DNA of 64,000 bases, taken from Candidatus Poribacteria bacterium. Lineage in GTDB: Bacteria > Poribacteria > WGA-4E > PCPOR2b. The notes below the pieces were generated by a model. That model was not told the DNA's origin. It did no database searches and saw nothing but the letters and a program-made list of their open reading frames with translations. Every line of letters starts with the position of its first letter. Positions within the stretch are counted from its first letter, which is position 1. Both the position numbers and the translations under genes were made by a program. Below, piece by piece: positions 33,281 through 51,139 of this stretch. The stretch is from contig OZ220744.1 in NCBI GenBank assembly GCA_965116925.1, forward strand, positions 2,240,001-2,304,000, written 5' to 3'.

Positions 33281-33304
33281 TGTTTGATATTCTCCAGATA
33301 TTAT

Positions 33305-33403: not shown

Positions 33404-33404
33404 C

Positions 33405-34184: not shown

Positions 34185-34185
34185 C

Positions 34186-34370: not shown

Positions 34371-34380
34371 TTATCTAGCC

Positions 34381-35412
34381 TTATACCGAGTAGGTTTGCC
34401 ATGTGCCCAGACAACCGTGTCCTCGACGGACATGCAACACCTGCTTTGCTGGTTCGGCGATGTAGCCGGAGATTGAGTGCATATTCTTTTCCCCGTGCCG
34501 ACAGATACCGCCCGGATCGCCATCGTGGTCTGCAAGGATACGCTTGAGGGTTTCGACGGTAATCTTCCCCCAATTTTCCTTAATTAGCAGGCGGATGCGA
34601 TCAAGTCGGGGGCAAGAATCGGGCAGGGAGTGAGTTTCGTAATTTCCAAACGGAGCAGTCAGGTAGTGGTTAGTATGCAGGCGGCAGTCTGAATGCTCAT
34701 CATCGAAGGGGGCAATCCCTTCGGGGCGGATCTCCACATCACCGATTCTGCCTTCGCCATCGCAGATGACCGCATTTGCCGCTGAGCAGGTGCGGTGCTT
34801 CTTCAAGAGTTTAAGGCAGCCTTCAAGGTTTGGCTGTTCTAGCATGACGCGCTTGAGGGGGTAGTGGGGAAGCCCCAAACTCCACTGGAAATCGTAGAGT
34901 GCGTTGGCGAAGTGGGCTAGACCGTACTGATTCATTCCCGAATAGCCGAGCTGTCCGGCAAAGGTAAATATCAAGGCTCTGGGACGGCCGTCGGTCGGTT
35001 TGACGTGGAGCAGGATTGCCACATCTGCGTATTCCGTCTCAAGATCTTGGTTTTGGCCTGCCAAGGGTAGACCGTCGGCGGTGGCGGAACCGGTGAGCGC
35101 GAATGCTGTACATCCCCCTTCGTATACACGGGCGGCTTCGGCGCGTGCCTGACACAGCACTGCCTCTTCAAAACTGACCCCCGCGCCGTCGGTGAGTCCT
35201 CGAACCTCCTCCACGAAGGCGGGACTGAGTTTCTCCATCATGGGCAGGAACGCCATCGCGTTCTGACACAAGACCCCCCTCGGTTTACCTGTCAATCTCT
35301 CGATCCATAACAGGTATTTTTGGACGAGCTCGGCGGCTTGGGCACCGTGCTGATAGCCCATCTGATAGGCATCGCCGGATACTTCGATTAAGGGGAATGT
35401 ATGTTCCGTCAT
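34381..35412 (-). CDS. C45 family Ntn-hydrolase (acyl-CoA:6-APA acyltransferase-like)
   Basis: GYQHG, GGCT nucleophile, GQNQD, GMNQYGL and HTNH motifs. Confidence 0.88.
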   Translation of the reverse strand: MTEHTFPLIEVSGDAYQMGYQHGAQAAELVQKYLLWIERLTGKPRGVLCQNAMAFLPMMEKLSPAFVEEVRGLTDGAGVSFEEAVLCQARAEAARVYEGGCTAFALTGSATADGLPLAGQNQDLETEYADVAILLHVKPTDGRPRALIFTFAGQLGYSGMNQYGLAHFANALYDFQWSLGLPHYPLKRVMLEQPNLEGCLKLLKKHRTCSAANAVICDGEGRIGDVEIRPEGIAPFDDEHSDCRLHTNHYLTAPFGNYETHSLPDSCPRLDRIRLLIKENWGKITVETLKRILADHDGDPGGICRHGEKNMHSISGYIAEPAKQVLHVRRGHGCLGTWQTYSV

Positions 35413-35643
35413 ATCCTCTCCTTTGAAAATGGGCGGATTGGCGAATGGTGGAATCTGTCAAAAGGATAACCGATTTTGGGGTTGAGGGCAAGGAATTTTC
35501 TATCGACTCAGTATATTGACGCAAGGTTTTTGGATGTTCGGGTCAGCTGTGTATACACATTGCGCTCCTCTGGAGCGCGAGTCCTGAACAAATCAGCGTT
35601 CTATAGACATATCGCTCCTCTGGAGCTAAAGACTTAACCTATA

Positions 35644-35777
35644 GGCTCATATAAAAAGAAAGTGCAAAGCACGAAAATAAATTGTAGGGGCGGGGTCTCC
35701 CCGCCCTTATTTGCTAGTGCGGGTCGGGAGACCCGACCCCTACGAAGCTTTTGTTGCAGACTTTCTTAACATGAGCC
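35644..35777. mobile_element. MITE-like element (GGCTCAT termini)
   Basis: GGCTCATATAAAAAGAAAGTGCAA...TTGCAGACTTTCTTAACATGAGCC with internal REP-like hairpins. Confidence 0.6.
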
Positions 35778-35836
35778 AACCTATAAACCTGATAGCAGCA
35801 AACCGACACATTTTGGACAACCAGCAACTTGGGTTA

Positions 35837-36634
35837 TTAGTACGGCAGCATACCGCCAGACACATTGAGGGCTTGTGCGGTGATGTAGTTTGAGTCCTCT
35901 GAAGCTAGGAAAGCGATTAGGTTGGCGACATCTTCCGGTTGCTGGATCCGTCCAACGGGGATGCGGGCTGCGGCTCGCGCTTTCACCGAACCGACCGGCG
36001 CACCTTCCAATTGCGCGACTTCACGATCAATGAGCTCCCACATCGATGTGTCTACAATACCGGGGCACACACAGTTGACCAGAATCCCGTGCTCTGATAA
36101 CTCCAAGCCGAACTGTTTGGTGAGTGCAACAACGGCGTGCTTGCTCGCGGCATAGACACCGAGCGGTGTGCCTTTGCCGGGTGCGACTTTGCCTGCGCCG
36201 GAGGCGTTGTTGATAATACGACCTCCGTTACCTTGAGCGATCATTTGCGCTGCAGCTGCTTGCGAACAGAGTAACACCCCTTTTGCGTTTACGTTCATCA
36301 GCGCGTCCCACGCAGCCTCGTCGGTGTCCATCAGCGATGCGATAATTGCGATACCCGCGTTGTTGACCAGAATATCTAACCTGCCAAATCGTTCAACGGT
36401 TTCGGACACCATCCGTTCGGTATCGGTTTTGTTTGTCACGTCTACTGTGAAGGGATGGGCGGTTCCGGCGACTGACTCAATTTCTTGGGCAACCGCTTTC
36501 GCGTTTGCTTCGTTGATGTCCGCAACGGTGACACTCGCACCTTCGCGAACCAACCGTAGGGCGGTCGCTCTGCCGATGCCGCGTCCGGCACCCGTTACGA
36601 TTGCGACCTGTCCATCGAGTTCGTACCTTGGCAC
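35837..36634 (-). CDS. SDR family oxidoreductase (acetoin/polyol dehydrogenase-like)
   Basis: TGAGRGIG, NNAG, YAASK and CPGIVDTSMW motifs. Confidence 0.9.
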   Translation of the reverse strand: MPRYELDGQVAIVTGAGRGIGRATALRLVREGASVTVADINEANAKAVAQEIESVAGTAHPFTVDVTNKTDTERMVSETVERFGRLDILVNNAGIAIIASLMDTDEAAWDALMNVNAKGVLLCSQAAAAQMIAQGNGGRIINNASGAGKVAPGKGTPLGVYAASKHAVVALTKQFGLELSEHGILVNCVCPGIVDTSMWELIDREVAQLEGAPVGSVKARAAARIPVGRIQQPEDVANLIAFLASEDSNYITAQALNVSGGMLPY

Positions 36635-36733
36635 GGTTTTCCTCCTTGTTGGGTGGTTGATTTTGTCGTGTCTGACTTAGATGTAGTGCAAGTTGCTAGT
36701 TGTGATCGCTCTGCCTGTTTGAATCAGCATTCT

Positions 36734-37185
36734 CTATTAGGACTTACGCACTTCAGTTCTAAGAGCAGATAGGGACGCAGATTTCGCTGATTCTCGCTGA
36801 TAAAAACAAAAAAGGTAGGACTTACGCAGTTGAACGGTAAAATCCAACCCCTTCCGCTACGTGGAACCTACACCTCCGTTTCAATGATTCACCGGCACGA
36901 TTCGGCAATTTGGCAGGGCACTGGCAGGTCCAAAAAAAAATTCAACCTCACATCGGGGGTTCATCATTGGTGCGTGCCTCTCTGAACCCTTATGGGGCCT
37001 AGCTTCAGAGCGTTTGCCAATTTTTACCACGTAAGAGGAGAGGCACCCAAACGGCTTTTTGACCTGCCAAATACGCACTGTTTATGAACCGTTTTTCGCT
37101 GAAATGACACCATAACCAAGCCAAATGTCAGGAATTTGGCAGGTCCCTGACAGGTCAAAACTCTGAAGTGCGTAAATCCTAATAG
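36734..37185. mobile_element. ~450-bp non-autonomous element with AGGACTTACGCA-family TIRs and a nested second end
   Basis: CTATTAGGACTTACGCACTTCAG / CTGAAGTGCGTAAATCCTAATAG (22/23 match). Internal TAGGACTTACGCA near 36816. Confidence 0.7.
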
Positions 37186-37488
37186 TTATATTCGGTGTAT
37201 TTGAATAGGTTCATCACCCTTATTATAACTTATTTTTCCACCATAACGTAAGCTATCATAGATTTTTTTTAGAGGTTGTGTGAAAAATGATCCGTTGCTA
37301 CTGGATTTGTGCCAACTATAGAAGGGACGGTCATGTAACAGGGATGGAGGTTGGCTTGACGATGTTTTTTGTGTGCGAATATTTTCTACACAACGAAACA
37401 ATTGTGTGGTAAAATCTATAGCGATCCTGATTTTGGATTTCCTCCGATGAATCGGAAACTATCGAGCATTGAGACTAACGGTAGAATT

Positions 37489-37701
37489 TGTGCTATTTGT
37501 CTGAATCGCGGATTAAAACGGATTTAACAGATTATGCGGATTATTGTCTGAATCAGGATTCGCAGGATTTAAGGATTTTCAGGATAGCGTGCCTGATACG
37601 TGCAAATGGGAAAAGATTTGTTGGTTCATTTAGCCCTAGCGGGGCGACATGTGCTATTTGTCTGAATCGCGGATTAAAACGGATTTAGCGGATTACGCGG
37701 A
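37489..37701. repeat. ~50-bp direct repeat built of GGATT-containing units
   Basis: TGTGCTATTTGTCTGAATCGCGGATTAAAACGGATTTA at ~37489 and ~37650. Confidence 0.7.
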
Positions 37702-37783
37702 TAAATGTAGGTTAGGTTGAGCAGTTAAGGACGTATTGAAAGTTATTTATGAGCACCCCTCAATTAGTCGAAAGGTGGTACTC

Positions 37784-38260
37784 ATGAGACTCTTAGATAT
37801 CCTTGAAAAATCGGGGATGACGAGCCTGAAGATTCCGCCCTCTTTTCTGCAAATGGAGTGGAATCCAAAAACAGCCGATAAAGATGCCGCTTGGGCACTG
37901 TATATCGAGTTGCTTACAAGAATCACCACACAGCCATTGCCTACCGAGCACGGCGATGAGAAAACAGCATTGGACAGTGTCTATTCGCTTTTTGCGGTTA
38001 CGCGGGAAGTCATCAAAGAACAAGGACCGGATTGCATCAACTTCACAAGAATTGCAATTGTTGTTCTTAACCAAGTGATTCGTCCGTTTACTGCAAAGTG
38101 GCATCGAAAGAGCTTGGCAGGTGATTTTGAACAGGAATCGGAATGTGCCGCTTTCCGCGAAGAACTTGCTGCTCTCCAAGTGGAATTACGCAAATATTCT
38201 CGAATGCTAGCAGATATCGCCGAAGTCGAAGATTTAACTGACTTAGAGGCGACAGAGTAG
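37784..38260 (+). CDS. hypothetical alpha-helical protein at the head of the defence island
   Basis: AWALYIELLTRITTQPL..LNQVIRPFTAKWH; start inferred at MRLLDIL. Confidence 0.7.
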   Translation: MRLLDILEKSGMTSLKIPPSFLQMEWNPKTADKDAAWALYIELLTRITTQPLPTEHGDEKTALDSVYSLFAVTREVIKEQGPDCINFTRIAIVVLNQVIRPFTAKWHRKSLAGDFEQESECAAFREELAALQVELRKYSRMLADIAEVEDLTDLEATE

Positions 38261-38280
38261 TGGGCACAAAGTATGCAGTA

Positions 38281-38419
38281 CAGGACTTATGCAAATTTAG
38301 CACACGAAGGGTAGATTTTTGGATTCTTAACCCCCTAAATCCCCTAACCCCCTAAATCCCCCTTGTCAGGGGGACTTGGGAAAATCAGGGGGACTTATGA
38401 ACGCGCTGCGTAAGTCCTA
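38281..38419. mobile_element. MITE (AGGACTTACGCA termini)
   Basis: CAGGACTTATGCA...TGCGTAAGTCCTA with a duplicated internal CCCCTAAATCCCC module. Confidence 0.7.
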
Positions 38420-38483
38420 CAGTAACGGTTTGCTGTGACAACAACAGGGAAACACATCTTACAAAAGAAAATAGGGGGATACC

Positions 38484-39302
38484 GTGGGACAAAAAATGCG
38501 CCATATCCTCGGGCTTTCCGGTGGCAAAGATAGTTCAGCACTCGCTATTTACATGCGGGACAAGGTGCCGGAGATGGAATACGCTTTCTGCGATACGGGA
38601 AAGGAGTTGCCGGAGACGTATGAATTTCTCGATCGGTTGGAAGCCTTTTTGGGGAAAAAAATTAATCGGTTAAACGCCGAACGGGAATTTGACCACTGGC
38701 TTTCGGTTTTCGGTGGATTGCTGCCATCATCGCAAGTGCGCTGGTGTACACGGCTGCTGAAAATCAAACCTTTTGAGGAGTTTGTCGGTGAGGATAAGGC
38801 TTACAACTACATCGCCATCCGCGCTGATGAGGATCGCGTTGGCTATAAGCCCCTGAAGAATGTTGACGCACGAAATATCGAACCCAAGTATCCGTTCAAA
38901 GAGGACGGCATCACCGAAAGGGATGTCTACCGAATTTTGGAGGAGAGTGGTCTCGGCTTACCGGAGTATTACCAGTGGCGAACGCGCTCCGGGTGCTACT
39001 TCTGTTTCTACCAGCGCAAAGCGGAGTGGATTGGGTTGAAGAAGAACCATCCCGACCTCTTTGAACTCGCGAAGGATTACGAGAAAATCAATAAAGATAC
39101 AGGCGAGCGGTATACTTGGAGTCAAAGCGAAAGTTTAGAGGAACTTTCCGACCCTGAACGGGTGAAACAGATTGAGGAAAATTATGCGAAGGCGATGGCA
39201 CGGGAAAAGGACGCCCAACCGAATCGTCCGTTGCTTGAAATTTTCGGCGATGTTCTTGATGATGAGGACGATGAGGAGCCGTGTTTGATTTGTAGTGCGT
39301 AG
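38484..39302 (+). CDS. sspD: PAPS-reductase-family protein, SspD-like (DNA phosphorothioation)
   Basis: SGGKDS PP-loop, RWCT, RSGCYFCFYQ and C-terminal CxxC. Linked to a DUF4007 stub and an SspC-like ATPase. Confidence 0.75.
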   Translation: MGQKMRHILGLSGGKDSSALAIYMRDKVPEMEYAFCDTGKELPETYEFLDRLEAFLGKKINRLNAEREFDHWLSVFGGLLPSSQVRWCTRLLKIKPFEEFVGEDKAYNYIAIRADEDRVGYKPLKNVDARNIEPKYPFKEDGITERDVYRILEESGLGLPEYYQWRTRSGCYFCFYQRKAEWIGLKKNHPDLFELAKDYEKINKDTGERYTWSQSESLEELSDPERVKQIEENYAKAMAREKDAQPNRPLLEIFGDVLDDEDDEEPCLICSA

Positions 39303-39339
39303 CTTGCTGCACATTCTCGCAAACAGCAAAAAGTGAACA

Positions 39340-40254
39340 ATGAAAAGAAAAAAAATTATCAAGAGATTTCAAAAGATAAGGCAATCGACACGAGCAAATA
39401 CAAGAGCACCTCATAAACCCTTGCTGCTTTTGTATGCAATTGGTAGATTGCTAAAAGATAAAGATCATCTCTTTTCATACTCCGAGATAGACAAGCATCT
39501 TGGAAAATTACTGGAGGAGTTTGGTCCTAGCCAAACTAAATCTAGAACACATTATCCATTTTGGAGGTTGAAAAATGACAAGATTTGGGAGATACCCGAT
39601 CCCAATAAAAAATATGTCAGGCGAACCTCCAAGAAAGATCCTTTTAAAAGCGATCTCTGTAAATACAACATTACTGGAGGTTTTCCCAAAGCTATTGCCA
39701 ATCAATTTCTGGATGATTCTAAACTTGTATCTGAAATAATTCAGATTCTACTATACAATAATTTTCCTTATTCGATTCACGAAGACATTCTACAGGCTGT
39801 TGAAATTGAGTCACCACTCCAAATTTATCAGTGGCAAATCCCAGACTCCAAACAGCGAAAGCGAGATTCCAAATTCAGAGAAAATATTCTGAAAATTTAC
39901 GAATTCAAATGTGCTGTATGCGGTTTTGACGCGAAATTAGATGCCAAACCTATTGCGCTAGAAGCTGCCCATATCAAATGGCATATGCATGATGGTCCCG
40001 ATGTAGTAGACAATGGATTGGCTCTATGCTCACTACATCATAAGCTGTTTGACCGTGGGGCGTTTACACTGTCTACGAAACGAGAAGTCTTTATATCAAA
40101 GGAGGTGCTTGGGACCATGGGCTTTGAGGAATGGCTTATCAAATTTCACCTTAAACAAATCAACCTCCCTGAGATGATATGCGATTATCCTGCACAAGAG
40201 TATATTGACTGGCACGCTAGAGTGATATTTAGAGGTAATTACAGTAATAGCTAG
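39340..40254 (+). CDS. SBD-HNH phosphorothioate-dependent restriction endonuclease-like protein
   Basis: RAPHKPLLLL and YPFWRL (sulfur-binding domain); CAVCG..EAAHIKWH..NGLALCSLHHKLFD (HNH). Confidence 0.8.
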   Translation: MKRKKIIKRFQKIRQSTRANTRAPHKPLLLLYAIGRLLKDKDHLFSYSEIDKHLGKLLEEFGPSQTKSRTHYPFWRLKNDKIWEIPDPNKKYVRRTSKKDPFKSDLCKYNITGGFPKAIANQFLDDSKLVSEIIQILLYNNFPYSIHEDILQAVEIESPLQIYQWQIPDSKQRKRDSKFRENILKIYEFKCAVCGFDAKLDAKPIALEAAHIKWHMHDGPDVVDNGLALCSLHHKLFDRGAFTLSTKREVFISKEVLGTMGFEEWLIKFHLKQINLPEMICDYPAQEYIDWHARVIFRGNYSNS

Positions 40255-40396
40255 CGCGGGTTGGATAGCTCTTGAAAATATCTCAGAACCCAACGTAGCA
40301 TTAACGTTTAGAGAATATACCCTTTTTCAGCAAATTAAGACAATGTAAAACGGGTGAGAAGTATCTTCTTTGCATGTTGATAGGGTTTTTAACTGA

Positions 40397-40570
40397 GTGA
40401 CTCTCAAGAAACTCAGAAAGAATTATTGTGGAATTATTAAGGACATTCGGCTACGAATTCGTAAAGAGAGCAAGGAAACTCAACCGGATCGTTCGTTAAT
40501 CGACATTTTCGCCAATATCCTTGATCATAAGAACGATGAGGAAGCGTGTCTGGTTTGTGGTGGTGTATAG
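40397..40570 (+). pseudogene. diverged duplicate of the sspD 3' end
   Basis: ..KETQPDRSLIDIFANILDHKNDEEACLVCGGV* compared with SspD ..KDAQPNRPLLEIFGDVLDDEDDEEPCLICSA*. Confidence 0.75.
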
Positions 40571-40607
40571 CCTATTGCAAATTCTTCCAAATAACAAAGC
40601 GTGAAAA

Positions 40608-41516
40608 ATGGACAGAGAAGCAATTATTCAGAAATTTGAAACCTTGAATCTATGGCAAAGGGCAGGGGAAAGAGCACCGCACAAACCCTTGCTGGTTCTG
40701 TATGCAATTAGAAGATTGATACGAGATGGAGTTCGCCTCATTCTGTACTCCGAAATAGATGAGAATCTTGGAAAATTACTGAAGGAGTTTGGGCCTAGAC
40801 GATCAAAATATGGAACCCAGTATCCATTTTGGAGGTTGCGAAATGATAGTGTTTGGGAGGTAACTGATGCTCACAAAATTGTCCCAAACTCCAGTGGAGA
40901 CGCCCGAAAGAGGGATCTCCTTGGTTACAATGTTGCTGGTGGTTTCCACCAAGTCATTGCCAAGCAATTTCAGAATGATTCGAGACTAGCGTCTGAAATA
41001 ATTCAGAACCTGCTAGACGCTCATTTTTCATATTCGATTCATGAAGACATTTTACGGGCTGTTGAAATTGATTCACCTCTCCAGATTGCTAAACCTCAAA
41101 GACAAGACTCCAAACGGCGACAGCGAAACCCCAACTTCCGACCAAAGATTCTGAGAGCCTACGAATATAAATGTGCCGTCTGCGGTTTTGATGCAAAATT
41201 AGGAACCTCTCCCGTTGCGTTAGAAGCCGCCCATATCAAGTGGCATACGCATCGTGGTCCCGATGTAGTAGTCAATGGGTTGGCTCTCTGTTCGCTACAC
41301 CATAAGCTATTTGATCGTGGAGCGTTTACACTATCCAAGGAACGGGAAATCGTAGTATCAGGTGATGTACACGGGTCAGTGGGTTTTGAGGAATGGCTTA
41401 TGAAATTTCACGGTCAGCAGATTAACCTTCCTCAAAGGGAAGGTGACTATCCGGCGGTAAAGTTCATTAGATGGCACATTAAAGCGGTATTTAAGGGAAA
41501 TTACCGTGAATTGTAA
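40608..41516 (+). CDS. SBD-HNH phosphorothioate-dependent restriction endonuclease-like protein (paralog)
   Basis: GERAPHKPLLVL, QYPFWRL, CAVCG, EAAHIKWH and NGLALCSLHH motifs. Confidence 0.8.
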   Translation: MDREAIIQKFETLNLWQRAGERAPHKPLLVLYAIRRLIRDGVRLILYSEIDENLGKLLKEFGPRRSKYGTQYPFWRLRNDSVWEVTDAHKIVPNSSGDARKRDLLGYNVAGGFHQVIAKQFQNDSRLASEIIQNLLDAHFSYSIHEDILRAVEIDSPLQIAKPQRQDSKRRQRNPNFRPKILRAYEYKCAVCGFDAKLGTSPVALEAAHIKWHTHRGPDVVVNGLALCSLHHKLFDRGAFTLSKEREIVVSGDVHGSVGFEEWLMKFHGQQINLPQREGDYPAVKFIRWHIKAVFKGNYREL

Positions 41517-41603
41517 TCCGTTGATTCGGCTGCCCGGTTTAATTTAATTGACAGCTTACTGTTAAATGCGTTTACCCATTTATATGATTTTGGGAGTGAT
41601 GTT

Positions 41604-42344
41604 ATGCAGTCAATCTATTCGTTAATGCCAGATCATGAAGCCTTGTTGGCTCTTGAACCGGAGGAACTAGCGGGTTTTGTTTTGGAATATCTTAATTCTC
41701 TTTCCCCAAGAGATTCTGGACAGTTAAACCGCCATAACTTTAGCTTGCCTCATACGGTGGAAGGGTACCCTCATGAATATCAGGATGAGATTAGCCGAGC
41801 ACTGATGGAGGCTTGGGTGTGGCTAGAACACGAAGGACTTTTAGCACCGAAACCGGGAGATGATAGAGGTTGGGTTTTCATTACAAGACGGGGGCACAAG
41901 CTAAAAACAGCTGTTGACGTGGAAGCCTATCGCAAAACAAGCCTATTGCCTAAACAACTTCTTCATCCGGTGATAGCCTACAAAGTCTGGTCACTCTTTT
42001 TGCGGGGAGAGTATGATACCGCCGTATTCCAAGCTTTTAAGGAGGTAGAGGTCGCAGTTCGTGATGCTGGAGGCTATGAAAAAAAAGATTATGGAGTTAA
42101 CTTGATGCGACAAGCATTTCACCCTCGGGATGGAGTATTGACTGATGCTAATCAACTACCGGCCGAAAAAGACGCAACATTGGCTTTGTTTGCAGGGGCT
42201 ATAGGTCTGTACAAAAATCCTCCTAGCCATCGAAATGTAAACATTACCCCGGTGGAAGCGGTAGAAATGATAATCTTCGCTAGCTCCCTGCTTAAGATTA
42301 TCGATTCTAACACATCGGCATCAGCTACACCTAGTGGAAACTAA
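41604..42344 (+). CDS. TIGR02391 (Ymh-like) family protein with N-terminal extension
   Basis: GEYDTAVFQAFKEVEVAVR..GVNLMRQAF..LFAGAIGLYKNPPSH. Confidence 0.8.
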   Translation: MQSIYSLMPDHEALLALEPEELAGFVLEYLNSLSPRDSGQLNRHNFSLPHTVEGYPHEYQDEISRALMEAWVWLEHEGLLAPKPGDDRGWVFITRRGHKLKTAVDVEAYRKTSLLPKQLLHPVIAYKVWSLFLRGEYDTAVFQAFKEVEVAVRDAGGYEKKDYGVNLMRQAFHPRDGVLTDANQLPAEKDATLALFAGAIGLYKNPPSHRNVNITPVEAVEMIIFASSLLKIIDSNTSASATPSGN

Positions 42345-42359
42345 ATTAAGCATAAGGAC

Positions 42360-43661
42360 ATGTTTATCGGGAGTGTTAAAAAAATGCGAGAATATGAGTA
42401 TGATGTTACCTTGTCCTTTGCAGGAGAAGATCGAACACACGCTGAAGCGTTAGCAAATCTTCTCAAGAATGATGGGTATAAAGTATTTTATGACAAATAT
42501 GAGTGGGCCCGGCTGTGGGGCGCAAATCTCTATGATGAATTCTCCGCAGTTTACAAGGATAAAGCACGCTACTGCGTCATGTTTGTGTCTGAACATTATG
42601 CCCAAAAGTTATGGACGAATCATGAACGCCAGACTGCTCAGGCGAGGGCATTTCAAGAAAGCGAAGCATATATTCTTCCGATCTTACTTGACGATACGGA
42701 AATTCCGGGAATTTTGCCCACAGTCGGGTACTTGGATTTACGCTCAATGTCTATTGAAGATGTCTATTCGATTTTATCGGAGAAACTACAAGAGGACTCA
42801 TTGCAGCCAACAATCAATCCTCCAACCTCCACTTCTGTCGAAAACAATATCGGAGAATTTGTGTTGTTGCGTTCAGCAAATGGAAGTTTGCGTTTTCTTT
42901 CGTTTATAGAAGCACGCAGGGATTCAACTGGTATATCCCTTAAAGTTCTTTCAGAATCGTCTGAAGACGCTGGATTTCTACGTTCATTAAGAGATACTTA
43001 TAGTAACGTACTTGCCTTTGCCTATAAGGAAGATGCTGCGTGGGTGAGTCTAGAGGAGATTGTTGAAACTACAGCCGGTTCTCAAACCGTCTGCGAAGTA
43101 CGTCTTAATATAAATGATAGCAACGCAAATTACGATTTCTTCGGTGATATGACAGGCATGAGCATTTCTGCAGATCAGATTGCCGAAATGCGTGCACGGA
43201 GAATTCTCCTTGATGAAAAATTGGATGTTGGTATTTCTGCGTTAAGCCAAGACAACTTCTCAAATATAGGACAACGAGCAACTTTATACACTGAGAACGC
43301 ATCAGGGATACGTTCATTACTTGGGCAAGTTGATACTTGGGAGCTAGATCTGCTAGAGGCTCATATTCATGGGATGTCTTCATCAGGCTATGAGCCTGGA
43401 CTACCAGTGGAGGCATCGCCAATTCCCGAGCTTTATCAGCAATTTAGACAAACTCCAGAGAAATTTAAGAAGTTTGCTCGTTTAATCTCGGTTCTCTATT
43501 TGAAACTGTCAAACACGGTTGAAGGTATACTTGAATTAGATTTGGAACTGCTAGGTTCCGCACAATTGCGAGTTAAATTTAGGGGGTGCCGGCCCCAACT
43601 TGCTGTAAATGTAGCACCTTCAATTATTGAATTCGAGGGAAATTGCCCACTTTCCGAGTGA
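42360..43661 (+). CDS. TIR domain protein with an unrecognised C-terminal region
   Basis: YDVTLSFAGEDR, LWGANL and WTNHE (catalytic Glu position). The start may be at 42384. Confidence 0.85.
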   Translation: MFIGSVKKMREYEYDVTLSFAGEDRTHAEALANLLKNDGYKVFYDKYEWARLWGANLYDEFSAVYKDKARYCVMFVSEHYAQKLWTNHERQTAQARAFQESEAYILPILLDDTEIPGILPTVGYLDLRSMSIEDVYSILSEKLQEDSLQPTINPPTSTSVENNIGEFVLLRSANGSLRFLSFIEARRDSTGISLKVLSESSEDAGFLRSLRDTYSNVLAFAYKEDAAWVSLEEIVETTAGSQTVCEVRLNINDSNANYDFFGDMTGMSISADQIAEMRARRILLDEKLDVGISALSQDNFSNIGQRATLYTENASGIRSLLGQVDTWELDLLEAHIHGMSSSGYEPGLPVEASPIPELYQQFRQTPEKFKKFARLISVLYLKLSNTVEGILELDLELLGSAQLRVKFRGCRPQLAVNVAPSIIEFEGNCPLSE

Positions 43662-43812
43662 TTGTAGAAAATGTTTTTGGGAGCTAGAATGTAAAACACC
43701 TAAACGAACTTATCCTTCCAAGCTTCAGAGTGCATATGGGTGGTTGAATCTATTATCTGACATTCCTACAGATAGAGCAAATCGCCAACCAAATCCACTA
43801 TCTCTGAATTAA

Positions 43813-43941
43813 TCGATTGGACTGCAAAGTGCGTTGCGTTACGATCAAACGGCGGGGGTGAAACAGGTTTACCGGGAGCGACAGATTGACCCGATGAAAC
43901 TACTCTATAGCTACTACCAAACTAACCCCTCTGCGTATTAA
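43813..43941 (+). pseudogene. sspB: 3' remnant of a DUF4007 (SspB-like) gene
   Basis: Manual translation gives SIGLQSALRYDQTAGVKQVYRERQIDPMKLLYSYYQTNPSAY*, which resembles the DUF4007 C-terminus. There is an in-frame stop just upstream, no start codon, and it abuts sspC. Confidence 0.6.
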
Positions 43942-43972
43942 TCCGAAAATAGGTTCAGCCCCGAAAAGACTC

Positions 43973-46900
43973 ATGAACAAAACCATTCCACTTTCTGAAC
44001 TCTTTCACGTTACCAGTCGTTTTCACCGTTCGGTTCATCTTGAACGCGATTTTTATGGGAAGAACGCACTGGATGGGTACGTCCTAACAGTCACGGCACG
44101 GGAAACACTGCAACGGCTAATTGCAGCACTTGAAGATGAATCGACATCGAAAGCGTGGTCACTCACCGGTCCCTACGGGTCAGGCAAATCGGCCTTTGCA
44201 CTCTTTGCTGCGAAGTTGCTAGGTGACTCCGAATCACTGACGACGCAGGCAGCGATGAAGCTCCTAAAGCACGGAGACAAATCCTTATGTAATCGATTCA
44301 TCGGTTTGGATCTACACGGGCGGAGAGGATTTTGTCCCGTGCTCATCTCGGGTGAACGCTCACCGATTTCGCTTGCTTTGCTGCGTGGATTGGATCGTGG
44401 TCTCACTGTTTTTAGCGATTCCCCGGCTCGGCTCCCGTCTTTCCGTCCACTTCTATCAGACATCCAAAAACGGTTGAAGGCAGCAGAAAATGGGAACCTA
44501 CCCCATGCTTCCGAAATTACGAACCTTTTTGAATCCGCAACAGGTCAGATTAGAGCAACGGAGGGCACAGGACTGTTATTGGTAGTTGATGAGCTTGGCA
44601 AGTTTCTTGAATACGCCGCGCAAAACCCGGCAGATGGTGATCTGTTTGTGCTACAAAGTCTTGCCGAATTTGCCACCAGAAGCAAACAAACACCTCTGCT
44701 GATGCTGACAATTCTCCATCAAGCGTTTGAGCAGTACGCACAACGGTTAGCAGCCTCCCAACGTGAGGAGTGGGCGAAGGTACAGGGACGTTTTGAGGAT
44801 GTCTCCTTTATAGAACCGACTGAGCAGGTGCTTCGCCTAATTGGGAGTGCAATCCAAAAGACTGCAGCAGTTGAGAATCCCAACCTTTCTGTTGCGGTTG
44901 ACCTAGAACTTAAACCACGCCAACTTGATAAGACCGAATTTGTGTCGCTGCTTGAAAGCTGTTTGCCCCTCCATCCGACAGTTGCTCTCATTGTCAGTCC
45001 ACTTTTCCGTCGATTTGCTCAAAATGAACGCTCTCTTTTCGCCTTACTCAACTCCAGCGAACCGCACGGACTCCAAGATTTTCTCTCTAAGCAGATCTAC
45101 GATGGGCGTGCCCTACCAACATTTAGGCTGTCCAACCTGTACGATTACATTTACAACGCTTTGGGCAGCGGTCTGTACACATCAAGGGAGGGGGCAAAGT
45201 GGGCAGAAATCGAGTCCGCAATTGAACGACTGCCGGACCCGTCTCCGATGACGGTGAAATTGATTAAAACTATCGGTCTGCTCGGTATTGTTGGGGAGGC
45301 AAGTGTAAATCTGAAAGCCTCAAAGGCTTTACTCCGTTACGCACTCGATGATGGCATGGAGAATTTCCAGAATGAAGTTAATGAGTCTGTCGAATCATCG
45401 TTGGCGATGTTGGAGGGACGTTCTATTGTTATCTACCGCCGCTACAACGATGCGTATGCCCTATGGGAAGGAAGCGATATCGACATCGAAGCGAGGCTCC
45501 GGGAGGCAAGAGCACACCTTGACCCGAATCTGCGCCTGCCTACTGCCCTCTCGACGCTTATGCAACCGCAACCCCTTATTGCCCGCCGGCACCTCTTTGT
45601 GACAGGCACGCTGCGATACTTTGTCGTCCGGTACACCGACCTTGAGGGGTTTGATGAGGATTTGCAGATGCCATCTGATGAGGCCGACGGGTCTGATGAC
45701 GCGGACGGGCTTGCGCTTTACGCCCTGCCTACAAGCGAACTTGAGGCAGAACAGCTTGTTGCAAAAGCTACCGAATTAGCCGCGGATCGCGAAGATGTAC
45801 TCATTGCGATTCCCGAATCAATCGACTCTTTGAGGGACGCTGTCCTTGAGCTTTGGTGTTTGGGTTGGGTTGAGAAAAATACCCCCGAACTCCGTGGCGA
45901 TGCAACAGCGCGGCGTGAACTTTGGGCGCGACACACTGAGGCCGAGCAAGAGGTATCCGATCAATTGACTTCTCTTTTTGGCGGAAACCTAGCTGCCCCT
46001 CAAGTGGCTCTCAGCCCGACTCGTAAGGAAGACACCGGGGGCTGCTCATGGTATCATAACGGACAACCGATACTGATTACCTCAAGAAGAGCACTTAATG
46101 AATATCTATCCGAAATCTGTGATTCTGTTTACAATGCAACTCCGATTCTTCGTAATGAACTGATCAATCGACGAAAAATTTCCTCGCAGGCAGCGTCCGC
46201 AAGACGGAAACTCATTGGAGGGATGCTTGATTCCCAAGGACAGGAAAAACTGGGTATTGACGGCTACCCACCCGAAATGAGCATTTACCTCTCCTTACTA
46301 TTCGACACCGGGATACACCGTTGTGTTTCGGGGGTGTGGGGGTTTCATCCACCAAACACCGATGATAAAAATCGAATCTCTCTCACTTGGCTAGAGATCG
46401 AAAGTTTTCTTAACGAATGTGAGGAGAGGAGACAATCTGTTGCCAAGCTTTATGAACGGTTGGAGCAGCCGCCCTTTGGATTGAGAAGTGGTCCAATGCC
46501 CATTCTTTTGTGCGCGGTATTGCTGCACTATGAGGCAGAAATCGCGCTATACGAAGATAGTTCCTTTGTTGCAGACATCTCAATGCCGGTTTTTGAGCGG
46601 TTGATTAGGGATCCTGAAAAGTTTGAAATCAAACGTTTCCGAATGGAAGGTATCCGCACAGAAGTGTTTGAGCAATTTACAGGAATGATTTCTAAGCCGG
46701 TGTCAGCGGAAGGGAGCCCGCCAAATCTTCTAGTAATTGTCAGACCGCTCATCAGTTTTATACAAAAGCTGCCCCGTTATACGATGCTCACACAGGATTT
46801 AAGCGATGCAGCGATCACCTTACGCAGAGCCATCAGCGATGCACGAGAGCCGGACGCGCTCCTCTTTGAACAGTTGCCCCAAGCACTCGGCTTTGAGGCT

Positions 46901-47533
46901 TTTGGACCATCGGTGGAGACAGATTCAGAAACGGTTAATGCGTTTTTCAATATCTTGCGAAGCGCACTGTCCGAGTTAAACCGAGCCTATGATGAACTGC
47001 TATCTTTCATTGAGGAGATGCTTATTTCTGCGTTTTCTTTACAATCGGATGGTGATTCGCCCCACATTGAATTGATTAACAGAGCACGCCCCTTGCTCGA
47101 TTGGACAATTGACACCAAACTCAAGGGGTTTTTGATTCGTATCTGCGACGAAGAGCTTGATTTCAAGGAATGGGTTGAGGCAATTGGAACTTATATCGCC
47201 AACAAACCCCCGGCATCGTGGAATGACTCAGATAAAGCCCATTTTGAGATGAACCTTTCTGAACTTGCGAGGAAGTTTCATCATTTTGACGCATTGTCAT
47301 TTGAGCAACGAGAGCAGCCTGATAACAACGCAGGTGAGGTAATTCGGGTTGGTGTTACTACTCTCTCTTCACAGGAGCAGGAGCGGGTCGTTACTGTGCC
47401 GCCAACTGCAGAGGCGCAAGCCGACAAAATTGAGCGCGCAATTGTACAAATGCTTGAGCGAGAGGAGAATACTGAAATTCGCCTCGCTATCCTAGCCCGA
47501 CTGTCGCAGAAGTTGATGGAACAGCTTGAGTAA
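43973..47533 (+). CDS. sspC: large P-loop ATPase, SspC-like
   Basis: RFHRSVHLERD, LTGPYGSGKS (Walker A), LVVDELGKFLE (Walker B), EWAKVQGRF and FAQNERSLF motifs. Confidence 0.75.
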   Translation: MNKTIPLSELFHVTSRFHRSVHLERDFYGKNALDGYVLTVTARETLQRLIAALEDESTSKAWSLTGPYGSGKSAFALFAAKLLGDSESLTTQAAMKLLKHGDKSLCNRFIGLDLHGRRGFCPVLISGERSPISLALLRGLDRGLTVFSDSPARLPSFRPLLSDIQKRLKAAENGNLPHASEITNLFESATGQIRATEGTGLLLVVDELGKFLEYAAQNPADGDLFVLQSLAEFATRSKQTPLLMLTILHQAFEQYAQRLAASQREEWAKVQGRFEDVSFIEPTEQVLRLIGSAIQKTAAVENPNLSVAVDLELKPRQLDKTEFVSLLESCLPLHPTVALIVSPLFRRFAQNERSLFALLNSSEPHGLQDFLSKQIYDGRALPTFRLSNLYDYIYNALGSGLYTSREGAKWAEIESAIERLPDPSPMTVKLIKTIGLLGIVGEASVNLKASKALLRYALDDGMENFQNEVNESVESSLAMLEGRSIVIYRRYNDAYALWEGSDIDIEARLREARAHLDPNLRLPTALSTLMQPQPLIARRHLFVTGTLRYFVVRYTDLEGFDEDLQMPSDEADGSDDADGLALYALPTSELEAEQLVAKATELAADREDVLIAIPESIDSLRDAVLELWCLGWVEKNTPELRGDATARRELWARHTEAEQEVSDQLTSLFGGNLAAPQVALSPTRKEDTGGCSWYHNGQPILITSRRALNEYLSEICDSVYNATPILRNELINRRKISSQAASARRKLIGGMLDSQGQEKLGIDGYPPEMSIYLSLLFDTGIHRCVSGVWGFHPPNTDDKNRISLTWLEIESFLNECEERRQSVAKLYERLEQPPFGLRSGPMPILLCAVLLHYEAEIALYEDSSFVADISMPVFERLIRDPEKFEIKRFRMEGIRTEVFEQFTGMISKPVSAEGSPPNLLVIVRPLISFIQKLPRYTMLTQDLSDAAITLRRAISDAREPDALLFEQLPQALGFEAFGPSVETDSETVNAFFNILRSALSELNRAYDELLSFIEEMLISAFSLQSDGDSPHIELINRARPLLDWTIDTKLKGFLIRICDEELDFKEWVEAIGTYIANKPPASWNDSDKAHFEMNLSELARKFHHFDALSFEQREQPDNNAGEVIRVGVTTLSSQEQERVVTVPPTAEAQADKIERAIVQMLEREENTEIRLAILARLSQKLMEQLE

Positions 47534-47653
47534 GACAGGCGGGCAACCACAAGGGTTGCCCCTACAGTTAGATCTTGGGTTTATAGTCGGGCGCGCCTGT
47601 CGGGACGCGCAATGAATTGCGCTACTACAAACTGAACTGCGTAACTTCTATTA

Positions 47654-47710
47654 GGATTGGATGTGCCGCCCGGTACGCTTAACGGTGTTCTCAAGCAAGC
47701 CGGTTTCAAA
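47654..47710 (+). pseudogene. hicA: HicA toxin 3' remnant
   Basis: GLDVPPGTLNGVLKQAGFK matches the HicA C-terminus. Bounded by MITE ends and located upstream of hicB. Confidence 0.7.
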
Positions 47711-47712
47711 GA

Positions 47713-47821
47713 TTATAGTGGACCTTAGAATTAATGAGACACTCCAAACCGGCGCAGTTGGAAACAGCGCCTACCAAACATGGGGGCGAAAGTGTCTATT
47801 TATTTTTTGAATTCACTATAA
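47713..47821. mobile_element. MITE (TTATAGTG...CACTATAA termini)
   Basis: Full copy. Relatives at 4577, 53589, 58120 and 62533 (reverse). Confidence 0.8.
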
Positions 47822-47834
47822 CTTGGAGGCACTT

Positions 47835-48029
47835 ATGCAATATCTAGTTGTTTTTGAAAAAGCGGCAAACAGCTATGGTGCCTATGTGCCAGACCTGCCC
47901 AGCTGCGTTGCGATAGGTGAAACGATGGCTGAGGTGCGTGGGTTGATTGCAGAAGCGATCCAATTTCATATTGAGGGGCTGCGAGAGGATGGTGTTGTTG
48001 TGCCGCTGCCATCGTCAACAGCTAGATAG
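47835..48029 (+). CDS. hicB: HicB family antitoxin (short)
   Basis: YGAYVPDLPSCVAIGET..EAIQFHIEGLREDG; RBS GGAGG. Confidence 0.85.
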   Translation: MQYLVVFEKAANSYGAYVPDLPSCVAIGETMAEVRGLIAEAIQFHIEGLREDGVVVPLPSSTAR

Positions 48030-48139
48030 ACATGTCGCCCCGCTGGGGCTTTGGGATATTTGTTTATCCGTTTACTATAAACATGTCGCCCCTCTGGGGC
48101 TAAATGAGCTGCTAAACCGACAAAATTTAGGAGAATTCG

Positions 48140-48799
48140 GTGAAAAAATTAACGCTTTTCTTATTTATCTTTATACTGGTAACGTCTCTTTGGGCGGAGG
48201 AGGATGTGAAAGAAACGAAAGCCGAAAAGCCCAAGACAAGCGGTGGTTTTGGGGGACCGGTGTTGAAGGTGACGCGGATCAACGATGTATTCGGCTTGAT
48301 GGTCGGTGGTCGAGCGGGTTGGATTTATAAACATACCTATGCAATCGGAGGGGGCTTTTACGGCTTACTCAGAGATATAGAGGTAGAGACGCCGGGTTTT
48401 GAACGTGAATTTGAGTTTGCTTATAGTGGACTGGAGTTAGAATATATTATCGCTCCCAGTCGAGATGTCCACCTCTCTGCTCAAACTTTGATCGGGTTTG
48501 GTGGGCTTACAGATCGGTATCAGCGGGTGTACTATTTTGTTGATGACTATAGTAGATATGGTGGTCCCGACGACAGTTTTTTTATTGTGCAGCCGGGCCT
48601 CAATATAGTGTGGAATATGAAAACGTATCTCCAGATCTATTTTGGAGGGAGTTACCGCTATATCCGTGGTGTTGACATCGAAGGACTCGATAATGCGGAT
48701 CTGAACGGTTACTCGGTCGTGGTGACCTTTAAGTTTGGTCGTAATGCGAAGGTGGAACCGCCGGATCAATCTGAGTTTGAAGGCACCTACATATTCTGA
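48140..48799 (+). CDS. outer-membrane beta-barrel protein
   Basis: Signal peptide followed by Gly/aromatic alternating strands. Confidence 0.7.
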   Translation: MKKLTLFLFIFILVTSLWAEEDVKETKAEKPKTSGGFGGPVLKVTRINDVFGLMVGGRAGWIYKHTYAIGGGFYGLLRDIEVETPGFEREFEFAYSGLELEYIIAPSRDVHLSAQTLIGFGGLTDRYQRVYYFVDDYSRYGGPDDSFFIVQPGLNIVWNMKTYLQIYFGGSYRYIRGVDIEGLDNADLNGYSVVVTFKFGRNAKVEPPDQSEFEGTYIF

Positions 48800-49261
48800 A
48801 AATTATGGTAGGTTTTAGGATTACTTAGACACTGTAGCGCAAACTGTATGAAGATTAATTTATTAATTGGGTAATTTCCGAGCGATGTCCGGTGCGGTTG
48901 GAAACCGCACCTACCGGGTCTGGGAGCAATATAGAATTGCCCGTTTAATTTCTTAAAACTCATTTAGTTTGCGCGCTCGGATCACAATCTAACAGATCGT
49001 GGTACAAGAATAGATTGTAGGTCGAGATTCATATCTCGACAGAATATCCAGCCCCGATGAATCGGGATTTTCAACGTGGCGTGCAACAATCTGGGTTGAT
49101 TGAGCCAAAACTATTGTGCAATGTGCTAAGTGATGTCGATTTTGGAAAATCGACCTACAGAAATCCGAAGCTATCTCTAATGTGTGAACAAAGGGTTGGG
49201 AGACCCAACCCCTACAATACGCCCGATGAATCGGGCAACTACAGTCTGAAGTGCGTAAGTC

Positions 49262-50290
49262 CTACTCGCTTTGAATTCCCACCAAATTAAGTTCTTCTGC
49301 CAAATGACATGCCACAAAATGACCGTCTGAAATTTCACTGAGTTCTGGCTCTTCCTCTCTACATCTCGCTTCGGCATACCTACATCGGGACTGGAAAACG
49401 CATCCGGTAGGCAAATCACTCGGATCGGGCGGTGCCCCTTCGAGGATAATGCGATCACGTCGACCGCGTTGGGTCAGTCTCGGCACGGCTGAATGCAGGG
49501 CTTCGGTGTAGGGGTGGGCGGGGTGGTGCAGCAGTTCGTCGCGCTCGGCGTATTCGACCAATTTGCCGACGTACATGACGGCGATGCGATCGGACACATA
49601 GCGGATAACCGCCATATCGTGCGAGATAAAGAGGTAGGAGAGCCCCAATTCCGCTTGCAGTTCTTGCATCAGGTTCAGGATTTGTGCTTGCACCGACACA
49701 TCGAGGGCAAAGACAGGTTCGTCCGCAACGATGAATTTCGGCTCGATGGAGAGCGCGCGGGCGATACCGATGCGCTGCCTTTGACCTCCACTAAAGCTGT
49801 GTGGGTAGCGGCGCAGGTGTTCTTTTTGCAGCCCCACTTGTATCAGGAGATTTTCAGCCTTCGCTTCCCGTTCTTGGCTTGTCCCGATGTCGTTGCAAAC
49901 TAGCGGCTCAATCACGTTGTCTAGGACCGTCATCCGCTCGTTTAATGAGGCAAAAGGGTCCTGAAAAATCATCTGCATGTTGGCGCGGACTTGGCGCATC
50001 TCGCGGTGGGCAAGTTCAAAGACAGAGAGTTTTTCTTCTTCATCGTGCAGGATGACCTCACCGCCTGTTGGCTCATAAAGCCGGAGGATGGTGCAGCCTA
50101 AAGTAGACTTGCCACAGCCGCTCTCGCCCACAAGCCCCAAGGTTTCACCTTCATTGATTGTGAAGCTGACCCCGTTGACAGCTTTGACATAGCCGATAGT
50201 GCGGCGTAGGAAGCCTTCTTGGATGGGGAAGAACTGGCGTAAATCTCGAACTTCTAGGAGAGGTTTTCCGTTTTTATTCATTGTGGGCAT
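49262..50290 (-). CDS. oligopeptide/dipeptide ABC transporter ATP-binding protein (OppF-like)
   Basis: [16 protein letters not shown] and C-terminal Cys motif. Confidence 0.93.
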   Translation of the reverse strand: MPTMNKNGKPLLEVRDLRQFFPIQEGFLRRTIGYVKAVNGVSFTINEGETLGLVGESGCGKSTLGCTILRLYEPTGGEVILHDEEEKLSVFELAHREMRQVRANMQMIFQDPFASLNERMTVLDNVIEPLVCNDIGTSQEREAKAENLLIQVGLQKEHLRRYPHSFSGGQRQRIGIARALSIEPKFIVADEPVFALDVSVQAQILNLMQELQAELGLSYLFISHDMAVIRYVSDRIAVMYVGKLVEYAERDELLHHPAHPYTEALHSAVPRLTQRGRRDRIILEGAPPDPSDLPTGCVFQSRCRYAEARCREEEPELSEISDGHFVACHLAEELNLVGIQSE

Positions 50291-50502
50291 ATTGGTTCAT
50301 GAGTTCATTGAATTGGCGAACCCTATACATTGCGCTCCGCTGGAGCGCAGCAATGGTAGGGATCACGATTCTATAGACATATCGCTCCTCTGGAGCGAAG
50401 GGTAGAGCGACGACGGGCGGGGAAACCCCGCCCCTACCAGTGGATTTGCGATAGATAGCAACTCGGATTAAACTTCTTGTATAATTTTTGGGGTAGTGAA
50501 TT

Positions 50503-50745
50503 TTAGACGTCGGTTACTTCTCGTATTGTGGCGGTAGTAGGTTCGGTGATTTGGGTATTTTCTTCAGACCGCGCCAATTGGTAGGCTGCTAGTTCTTCAT
50601 GTAAACGGCTAATCATTTTTTTTAGGCTGGCGCGAGAGTATTTCTGGTTGGGATAAGGCTGACGCTCCTGTACTTTTTCTAACCGTTTTTCTAGCTCTCG
50701 TAATTGTCCTTCGACAATTTTGCGTTCTTGGTCGTTCTGAATCAT
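50503..50745 (-). CDS. small coiled-coil hypothetical protein (antitoxin-like)
   Basis: MIQNDQERKIVEGQLRELE..; RBS GGAGG. Inserted between the two ABC ATPase genes. Confidence 0.55.
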   Translation of the reverse strand: MIQNDQERKIVEGQLRELEKRLEKVQERQPYPNQKYSRASLKKMISRLHEELAAYQLARSEENTQITEPTTATIREVTDV

Positions 50746-50823
50746 AGTTGTACCTCCACACGATTTTACCATAAGTTACGCCACTTTTCCAGACCAAGAC
50801 GCGAAACCCATAATTTTGCAGTT

Positions 50824-51092
50824 TCTTAACCTTTGGTGCTAGTTTAGCGAGAGAGTCTTTTCCACATTGTTCAAGTCGCTTTGGATCCCCCCGATAAATC
50901 GGGATAAACTAATTATCGGGGAGTTCATTGGTTCATTAGTCGGTTGGTTGATTCATTCTTCTTATGTTCCCGCCTTCGGATACACATGTCGCCCCTCTGG
51001 GGCTTTAGGGTATTTGTTTATCTGTGTACTATAAACATGTCGCCCCTTTGGGGCTAAATGCACCGCTGAACCAATGATTTTTACGTTTCACG
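50824..51092. repeat. composite dispersed repeat (copy of 34186-34370 with inserts)
   Basis: Shared blocks from TCTTAACCTTTGGTGCTAG to TTTCACG. Confidence 0.75.
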
Positions 51093-51139
51093 TCATCAAC
51101 AACTGCAAACTAGCATCATTGGTTATTACTCACAATTCG

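Follow-up and report, generated by a model that had tools for sequence, protein, structure and literature searches.

A candidate phosphorothioate-cutting allele of a proposed two-state ssp locus in Candidatus Poribacteria

The 64-kb stretch of a Candidatus Poribacteria chromosome analyzed here (positions 2240001-2304000 of contig OZ220744.1, hereafter the window) carries on its + strand, from 37784 to 47533, a gene run of the Ssp family, whose SspB, SspC, and SspD proteins place single-strand phosphorothioate (PT) marks on DNA. In this run, the nickase gene sspB is reduced to fragments, and two diverged nucleases, each combining a sulfur-binding domain (SBD) with an HNH nuclease domain, lie behind sspD. 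Relatives of this bacterium tend to hold at the same chromosomal position either an intact set of writer genes or such a nuclease next to a broken writer, and our preferred explanation, which we consider probable, is that the locus is the “cut PT” allele of a two-state chromosomal locus whose other allele would “write PT,” in a phosphorothioate analogue of DpnI/DpnII. In what follows, G labels denote genomes, L loci, c gene clusters, P protein homologues, g genera, and f families; the source genome, a single contig that is 99% complete, is G000, in which the window is G000:C1:2240001-2304000.

Two of the three writer genes are intact, namely sspD (38484..39302, +), encoding a sulfur-transfer protein of the PP-loop/PAPS-reductase fold, and sspC (43973..47533, +), encoding a 1186-aa ATPase. 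SspD reaches 388 bits against the PADLOC SspD profile, its SGGKDS and two CxxC motifs are invariant, and 0 of its 137 invariant residues are broken. SspC reaches 1108 bits against the PADLOC SspC profile, which outranks BrxC-PglY (669), and it carries a Walker A motif (GPYGSGKS at 66) and a Walker B motif (VVDE at 204), with 0 of 245 invariant residues broken and nearest named relatives in Ca. Poribacteria (86% identical). These scores and motifs bear out the identities that an earlier note, made from the letters of the window, had given to the ATPase and the PAPS reductase, and the gene list of that note (sspD, two SBD-HNH genes, a TIGR02391 gene, a TIR gene, an sspB stub, and sspC, all on the + strand) holds at the positions it gave. 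Of sspB, the DUF4007 nickase gene, a profile built from 68 SspB relatives and run against all six frames of the whole genome recovered a single match (E 1.6e-8, covering profile positions 275-309 of 312), to a stop-to-stop frame of 42 codons at 43813-43938. The ~42-codon DUF4007 stub described in the earlier note is thus the sspB 3′ end, of which the last ~37 codons remain without a start (43829..43941, +, by profile and blastx matches), and it is preceded by 30 bp from the middle of the gene (43799..43828, +; 27/30 identical to the mid-sspB of L042; local comparison, E 5e-7). Pfam DUF4007 and PADLOC leave the stub undetected, the custom profile alone having found it, and the same six-frame search retrieved no full-length sspB in the genome, only the stub and the 30-bp piece, as the idea of a disabled writer had implied. 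The junction at the sspB remnant is not an assembly artefact, since contigs from two runs of different studies cross it with 0 differences (X1, 43654-44181; X2, 42741-44059), one of these two sets being possibly derived from the source sample. SspB nicking is reported to be essential for single-strand PT (PMC8092258). In agreement with the earlier note, sspE and a cysteine desulfurase gene are missing from the window; in the genome, no SspE ortholog was found (the best matches are two short GmrSD-like pieces, E 7e-14), nor dndC, nor a dndD over the cut-off, and genes of the class-V aminotransferase/cysteine-desulfurase type lie elsewhere, with several strong PF00266 matches, one of them IscS-like by sequence.

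The two nucleases are predicted to be PT-dependent enzymes. Nuclease 1 (304 aa, 39340..40254, +) stands right behind sspD, in the position that we refer to as the effector slot, and nuclease 2 (302 aa) follows at 40608..41516 (+); they score 325 and 343 bits against NF045808, the PT-DNA restriction endonuclease family, for a cut-off of 180. The structural model of nuclease 2 (pLDDT 76) superimposes on the ScoMcrA SBD (5ZMO; E 6e-9, rmsd 2.1 A, TM 0.85), and its top structure matches are the SBDs of ScoMcrA, SprMcrA, and Hga, so that the SBD fold anticipated for the N-terminus is indeed there. Its pocket residues H25, K26, Y72, and P73 match the sulfur pocket of ScoMcrA (H116/R117/Y164/P165) with an R-to-K change, a substitution reported to be tolerated in SBD pockets (PMC6224610), and the same HK...YP pocket is found in nuclease 1. 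The CxxC, AAHI, NGLALC, and HH motifs are intact in both enzymes, the HNH/zinc residues of nuclease 2 being C189, C192, H209, N223, C228, H231, and H232. The two proteins have 184 identical positions (61% identity), and the loop that aligns with the base-reading loop of ScoMcrA differs between them (TSKKD vs NSSGD), so they may read different sequence contexts. A third, more distant SBD-HNH-like gene, below the NF045808 cut-off, lies beside a methyltransferase-like gene at G000:C1:5538475-5539428. A tandem of two diverged SBD-HNH genes is also seen, like in the window, behind the sspD of L233 (10001-12000), a locus whose sspB is frameshifted.

The pairing of such nucleases with a disabled writer recurs in relatives. 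Sixty-one genomes, picked by kinship and not by feature, were searched for SspC, DUF4007, NF045808, and SspD, and 40 regions were mapped. Within genus g1 (20 genomes including G000), 10 genomes have intact sspB, sspC, and sspD and none of these has an intact SBD-HNH gene over the cut-off, whereas the 9 without intact sspB and sspC all have an SBD-HNH gene at this locus (Fisher p 1e-5); G016 is too fragmented to score, G015 has a split SBD-HNH gene elsewhere, and G002 has its sspD apart from sspBC. The same contrast is repeated in g4, g5, g8, and g11. When all 61 genomes are considered, an SBD-HNH gene is accompanied by at least one intact sspBCD in 5 genomes and by none in 18; of the genomes that lack the nuclease gene, 23 have an intact sspBCD and 15 do not (p 0.004). 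Switched genomes are dispersed over an rpoB DNA tree (51 genomes, 44 labeled tips), with 14 state changes against a shuffled mean of 14.8, and 13 independent pairs drawn from 43 genomes are concordant in 12.4 cases on average and opposite in 0 (p about 0.0005), a test that omits G017 (no rpoB match), G050 (contig break), G021, G032, and G057 (two loci or contamination), and any genome whose locus could not be traced. Both states occur between identical flanks, that is c46...c24 in g1, c38...c54 in g11, and c8...c4 in f2. In g11, the 3′ half of sspD brings four switched genomes together (100/100) against the rpoB tree, and no such cluster is seen in g1; some switches may be alleles acquired by recombination and not new origins. 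The idea that one allele swept through g1 was considered and is unsupported by the sspD half trees. As side observations, the Poribacteria RpoB frames (L308-L362) differ in length (~1300-1800 aa) and contain internal insertions that may be inteins, and a rearrangement has split one ssp locus (L134, in G002, and L039), so that sspD and a truncated PbeA-like gene lie ~0.74 Mb from sspB-sspC.

Scans centered on SspC, on SspD, and on the nucleases were then added and overlapping sets de-duplicated, the locus classes being set after viewing the maps; in L233-L294, a gene counts as absent if the 20 kb retrieved do not contain it, and L241, L242, L264, and L267, whose ssp genes are out of view, were omitted. 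An SBD-HNH gene occupies the slot behind sspD in 35 loci, and 34 of them have no intact copy of sspB or none of sspC, owing to varied lesions most of which are deletions; as a background, flanking genes are split in 2/220 cases. Within these 34 switched loci, sspB is intact in 8 and sspC in 8 but never both, and sspD, intact in 28, is never the sole lesion: the single-lesion loci (n=16) are hit in sspB only in 8 cases, in sspC only in 8, and in sspD only in 0. The central proposition of the earlier note, that loci housing PT-reading nucleases no longer write PT, hence finds support at the population level, from the 61 genomes, the 34/35 slot loci, and the 13 pairs. The slot content changes as well, nine partner cassette types being present in 27/34 loci without SBD-HNH, in 15/18 loci of an upstream class described below, and in 2/34 switched loci. 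Most partner cassettes thus vanish once the writer breaks, which makes them candidate PT-dependent effectors, and a MzaB-like c21 cassette persists (4/34 in the loci without SBD-HNH and 4/34 in the switched ones).

Comparison with intact loci also clarifies how the locus of G000 may have come about. The earlier note had imagined that cargo split an sspD-sspB junction and removed most of sspB, a scenario that does not hold, given that intact loci of the same genus already have the order sspD-[variable effectors]-sspB-sspC; the effector slot is therefore native to the genus and not made by nuclease insertion. Intact slots contain DndB-like/DGQHR proteins, PbeA/PbeC-like pairs, SspE, HATPase proteins, and small nameless genes, and the Poribacteria pool (L035-L087, L129-L141), most of whose cassettes are undescribed, includes c20-, c34-, or GIY-YIG genes with a DGQHR protein, an 817-aa HATPase (c11), PbeA/PbeC-like genes with c14, the DpdB/DndB-like c15-c25-c16 set, and a GmrSD-HNH gene (c42). 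In G000, four pieces come in addition to the genes of the earlier list: besides the 30-bp mid-sspB fragment, these are a c15 pseudogene with several stops (40226..40478, +; blastx E 5e-11), a degraded second copy of the sspD 3′ end that precedes nuclease 2 (40472..40567, +; direct repeat D3, 77% identical), and the 5′ remnant of a DndB-like/DGQHR effector gene, ~36 codons long, with its start lost and an internal stop (43688..43798, +; blastx E 1e-10). In intact loci, c15 is a 96-aa gene of the DndB-like effector cassette, and the DndB-like gene of L041, L042, and L085, directly 5′ of sspB, has 76-79% DNA identity to the G000 remnant. Because the sspB stub borders on this dndB-like remnant at its left edge, sspB was lost by two deletions, and the notion that the nuclease insertion itself deleted sspB can be set aside. 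Decay differs between the pieces, the broken invariant DNA columns amounting to 42/113 in c15, 11/67 in the dndB-like remnant, and 7/49 in the second sspD end (vs 0 over the same columns in the live sspD), as against 1/48 in the sspB stub (an E-to-Q change in ETAG), 35/1969 in sspC, and 8/553 in sspD. Judged by these columns, the cassette remnants are old and the sspB stub is as fresh as the live genes, which explains the pristine sspC without a new function. Stubs of the sspD 3′ end are also found in front of SBD-HNH genes in G005, G057, and L264, and the GC content is 40-45% over the nucleases and the TIGR02391-TIR pair, vs ~52% on the left flank.

In the writer state that we propose, SspD, SspB, and SspC, served by a housekeeping desulfurase, would place single-strand PT marks on the host DNA, and the slot behind sspD would house partner effectors (DndB-like/DGQHR, PbeA/PbeC-like, SspE, and others). 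A nuclease would enter this slot, often with a piece of sspD, and the cell would survive its entry only with sspB or sspC knocked out. The reader state would then consist of an SBD-HNH type IV nuclease filling the slot, a writer disabled through either of these genes, and the loss of most effectors. The sparing of sspD could come from its place as a recombination anchor upstream of the nuclease, or from nicking being harmful without SspD. Being unmarked, such a cell would cut PT-marked incoming DNA, for instance phages or plasmids that come from sister strains with the mark, and would keep out any returning writer of that motif; in G000, two diverged nucleases would have been stacked and sspB deleted too recently for sspC to decay. 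Precedents exist for the ingredients of this model: ScoMcrA and dnd in one cell are reported to be lethal (PMC3009677), and SBD-HNH enzymes are described as restricting marked plasmids, with <3.6% of them near dnd clusters (PMC7461809). On the whole, the pattern suggests that populations split into taggers and cutters.

A number of observations nonetheless weigh against this explanation, at least in its general form. In 18 loci (L046, L047, L050, L054, L055, L061, L064-L068, L070, L072, L073, L077, L080, L086, and L131), which we call the upstream class, an SBD-HNH gene stands directly upstream of intact sspB, sspC, and sspD with effectors, most nucleases having intact motifs (those of L068 and L086 have degenerate HNH motifs) and the writers having a normal dN/dS. 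The possibility that the upstream nucleases form a tolerant clade of their own was rejected (AU p 0.0004), and no pocket or base-reading-loop residue cleanly splits them from the slot nucleases. The class may stem from one or two events, since 12/13 tested loci fall in one sspC clade. Further coexistence is seen in L251, with intact sspB, sspC, and sspD and an intact nuclease behind sspD, in G027 and G045, which have a second, divergent intact sspBCD elsewhere in the genome, in G032 and G057, with intact writer genes on other contigs, and in sspD loci outside Poribacteria, where an SBD-HNH gene lies within 10 kb in 6/54 cases, 3 of them with unbroken sspB, sspC, and sspD. Moreover, 7/34 switched loci rest on frameshifts or stops in metagenome-assembled genomes (MAGs) only, a mcrA gene is described within the PT-writing BREX4 operon of Bacteroides salyersiae (PMC12914056), and most characterized SBDs are said to read Dnd-type G-PS marks, only Hga being reported to read CpsCA, with a 10-fold restriction (PMC10602919). 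Mutual exclusion is accordingly mixed, 34/35 slot loci and 13 pairs agreeing with it and the 18 upstream-class loci and L251 showing coexistence, and from the upstream class, L251, G027/G045, and the non-Poribacteria cases it follows that an incompatibility, if there is one, depends on motif or regulation and does not hold in general. We would give about even chances to a fuller version of the proposal, a sulfur DpnI/DpnII of the Poribacteria in which the slot would toggle between an SspBCD writer with self-mark effectors and an SBD-HNH reader of the same single-strand mark, strains living together would shield one another against phages propagated on the other type, and the upstream class would be a third state with a reader blind to its own motif.

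Outside Poribacteria, 10/47 SBD-centered loci have ssp- or BREX-like pieces nearby, some ruined and some BREX-like ones intact, a picture too mixed to generalize. Among other loci, sspC is split at the same position in L197, L200, and L223 (Acidimicrobiales), each with an opposite-strand SBD-HNH gene nearby, an SBD-HNH gene lies directly upstream of a BREX-type-4-like run in L296 (Thiotrichales), and sspB, sspC, and sspD occur together in 4/80 viral loci (L375-L378), none of them tied to this host and all possibly provirus flanks.

The same coexistence (the upstream class, L251, G027, and G045) feeds the strongest rival, in which the writer decays first, after effector loss, and an SBD-HNH gene directed at other PT motifs (such as Dnd-type G-PS) settles in the vacated hotspot while tolerating the Ssp mark, so that slot occupancy and not toxicity would link the two. 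The nuclease replaces effectors in the very slot where they sat, which would remove the benefit of writing, and both the B. salyersiae mcrA within BREX4 (PMC12914056) and the reported frequent linkage of McrBC to methylases of another specificity (PMC2614495) offer precedents. Yet no clear broken writer without a nuclease was found among well-assembled genomes, the writer is inactivated in 34/35 slot loci even where the other genes are pristine, L076/L257 has a single stop in sspC with its effectors still there, and the sspB stub of G000 is fresh as live genes next to old cassette remnants; we therefore regard this order of events as unlikely, if worth keeping in mind.

It is less plausible still, and in our opinion improbable, that the SspD still encoded here tags invading DNA for the nuclease next to it. 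In the corresponding scenario, to which we give the same low credence, SspD with or without SspC would be active in the absence of SspB and sulfurate nicked or replicating invader DNA, which the SBD-HNH enzyme would destroy; the earlier note had likewise envisaged SspC and SspD cooperating with the nucleases. The intactness of sspD in 28/34 switched loci, with 0/16 cases as the sole lesion, its dN/dS of 0.08 in switched vs 0.10 in writer loci, the conserved spacer between sspD and the nuclease, and the report that TdpC of the tdp system can synthesize PT on its own (PMC12914056) all fit with it. But the surviving sspB (0.24 vs 0.26) and sspC (0.22 vs 0.22) are equally unrelaxed, so that a low dN/dS points to recency and not to special retention, and these coarse pairwise and three-point estimates gave no sign that the switch put sspD or sspC under selection of a special kind. 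In addition, six switched loci have no intact sspD, 5 of them with an intact nuclease, sspC is gone or broken in 26/34 (it is intact in 8/34, and in 1/9 within g1, which makes cooperation of SspC and SspD with the nucleases a weak proposition), and the persistence of sspD can be put down to its role as a recombination anchor on the transcript side of the nuclease or to harm from its early loss, a brxP deletion being reported as impossible to make (PMC12914056). Finally, the locus might be no more than a defence hotspot in decay whose passengers have nothing to do with one another, and MAG quality or sampling might have produced the pattern. The four stacked remnants, the split genes or two loci of some MAGs, and the setting of classes after map viewing speak for this, but it is very improbable and largely refuted by the 13-pair test, the junction being present in contigs of two studies, the kinship-chosen panel of 61 genomes giving p 0.004 with nothing dropped, and most lesions being deletions against background splits of 2/220.

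Between nuclease 2 and the sspB remnants, the locus holds two further genes, encoding a TIGR02391/Hypoth_Ymh protein (41604..42344, +; TIGR02391 63 bits, cut-off 39.5, with a weak HEPN-like match) and a TIR-domain protein (42360..43661, +, likely start 42384; TIR_2 E 5e-19). This TIGR02391-TIR pair is probably an independent defence module, as it also adjoins intact sspBCD in L137 and L068. A natural TIGR02391-TIR fusion exists (P0016, 67% identical over 235 aa to the TIGR02391 protein of the window), another protein, P0069, holding by eye only the N-terminal part of such a fusion, and nine contigs apparently common to the TIGR02391 and TIR match lists are an indirect sign of linkage. The TIR protein has an N-terminal TIR fold (Z 13.2) whose catalytic Glu, E81, is invariant in 60 homologues, and a middle domain similar to the Hcp/phage tail-tube/baseplate fold, residues 154-247 matching a phage baseplate chain (Z 12.4, rmsd 2.3, 93 aligned). 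As a lead only, the modeled middle domain might act as a phage tail-protein sensor. The C-terminal part of the TIR protein gave no usable Atlas match, and no ThsA-type effector was matched among the ten window proteins scanned with PADLOC, the partner of the TIR gene being TIGR02391. G000 has a second TIGR02391 gene at 1803835-1804620.

At the left end of the locus, c47 (37784..38260, +, with an ATG at 37784) encodes a 158-aa conserved protein of no named family; the 174-aa frame from 37736 had no match in Pfam, PADLOC, or NCBIfam, and its Atlas matches are nameless clusters. In relatives, the usual upstream partner of c47 is a ThsB-like TIR gene (PF08937; the L037 copy matches PADLOC PDC-M50B), which was cleanly deleted in G000 (window 37729-37770 vs L035:1432-2004), where the ~570 bp that carry it in L035 are missing. 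To the right, a HicB-like antitoxin gene (47823-48029, Pfam E 7e-11) is preceded, within 47600-48029, by a piece that by eye resembles a hicA C-terminal remnant and may be one. Short palindromic interspersed repeats at 36730-37710, 38280-38420, 47540-48110, and 48830-49265, with very high contig depth in sequencing runs, probably belong to a genome-wide REP-like family. No tRNA was found in the 64-kb window, and a promoter/terminator scan of it remained at chance level (23 vs 18.4 promoters).

All protein parts of the locus appear by sequence to belong to known families, and in the literature surveyed, mostly the main texts of open-access papers, we found no account of SBD-HNH nucleases replacing ssp-locus effectors with repeated writer loss. 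PT-dependent nucleases have mostly been studied singly against Dnd-type marks, and little is known of what they target in nature; SBD nucleases beside Dnd genes have been taken as partners of the writer (PMC10853773). In this regard, the locus family represents a natural experiment in which the switch has occurred independently many times and tolerant writer-reader pairs can be matched with intolerant ones. One prediction from it is that some SBD-HNH enzymes read the single-strand marks of Ssp systems, and such enzymes would help to map these marks. The family also sorts about ten uncharacterized effector cassettes by their survival after writer loss, and it makes a frequency-dependent epigenetic conflict testable in sponge-type communities.

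With regard to known systems, the strong PADLOC SspC and SspD matches tie the locus to SspABCD (with SspE or SspFGH), and relatives have sspB, sspC, and sspD, few of them with SspE; it differs in that G000 has sspB fragments only, in the genus order D-[effectors]-B-C, and in its usual partners, which are DndB-like, PbeA/C-like, or uncharacterized cassettes. The nucleases resemble the SBD-HNH type IV enzymes SprMcrA, EcoWI, and ScoMcrA in their NF045808 match, SBD fold, H-K/Y-P pocket, and HNH site, but they have no SRA domain, lie inside ssp loci, and form here a tandem diverged pair. BREX type 4 of B. salyersiae likewise has an SspD/SspB/SspC-like writer beside an McrA-like gene, and its writer is described as active and tolerant of mcrA (PMC12914056), like the upstream class and unlike the G000 locus, around which (33000-53000) no brxZ (pglZ) or brxL frame was found, the rest of the genome being outside that search. 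As in ScoMcrA and dndA-E of Streptomyces, a PT reader and a PT writer would be unable to share a cell (PMC3009677), but those are reported as separate elements with double-stranded Dnd PT, whereas here a reader and the ruins of a writer stand in one locus, repeatedly. By analogy, the logic of the locus would be that of McrBC against methylases (PMC2614495) and, above all, of DpnI/DpnII in Streptococcus pneumoniae, whose alternative states, one cutting marked DNA and the other marking self and cutting DNA without the mark, are described as guarding a mixed population (PMC3812788); that system relies on methylation and on a clean cassette swap in one species, whereas the Poribacteria locus would rely on sulfur, keeps the remnants of its writer in place, and extends over three families.

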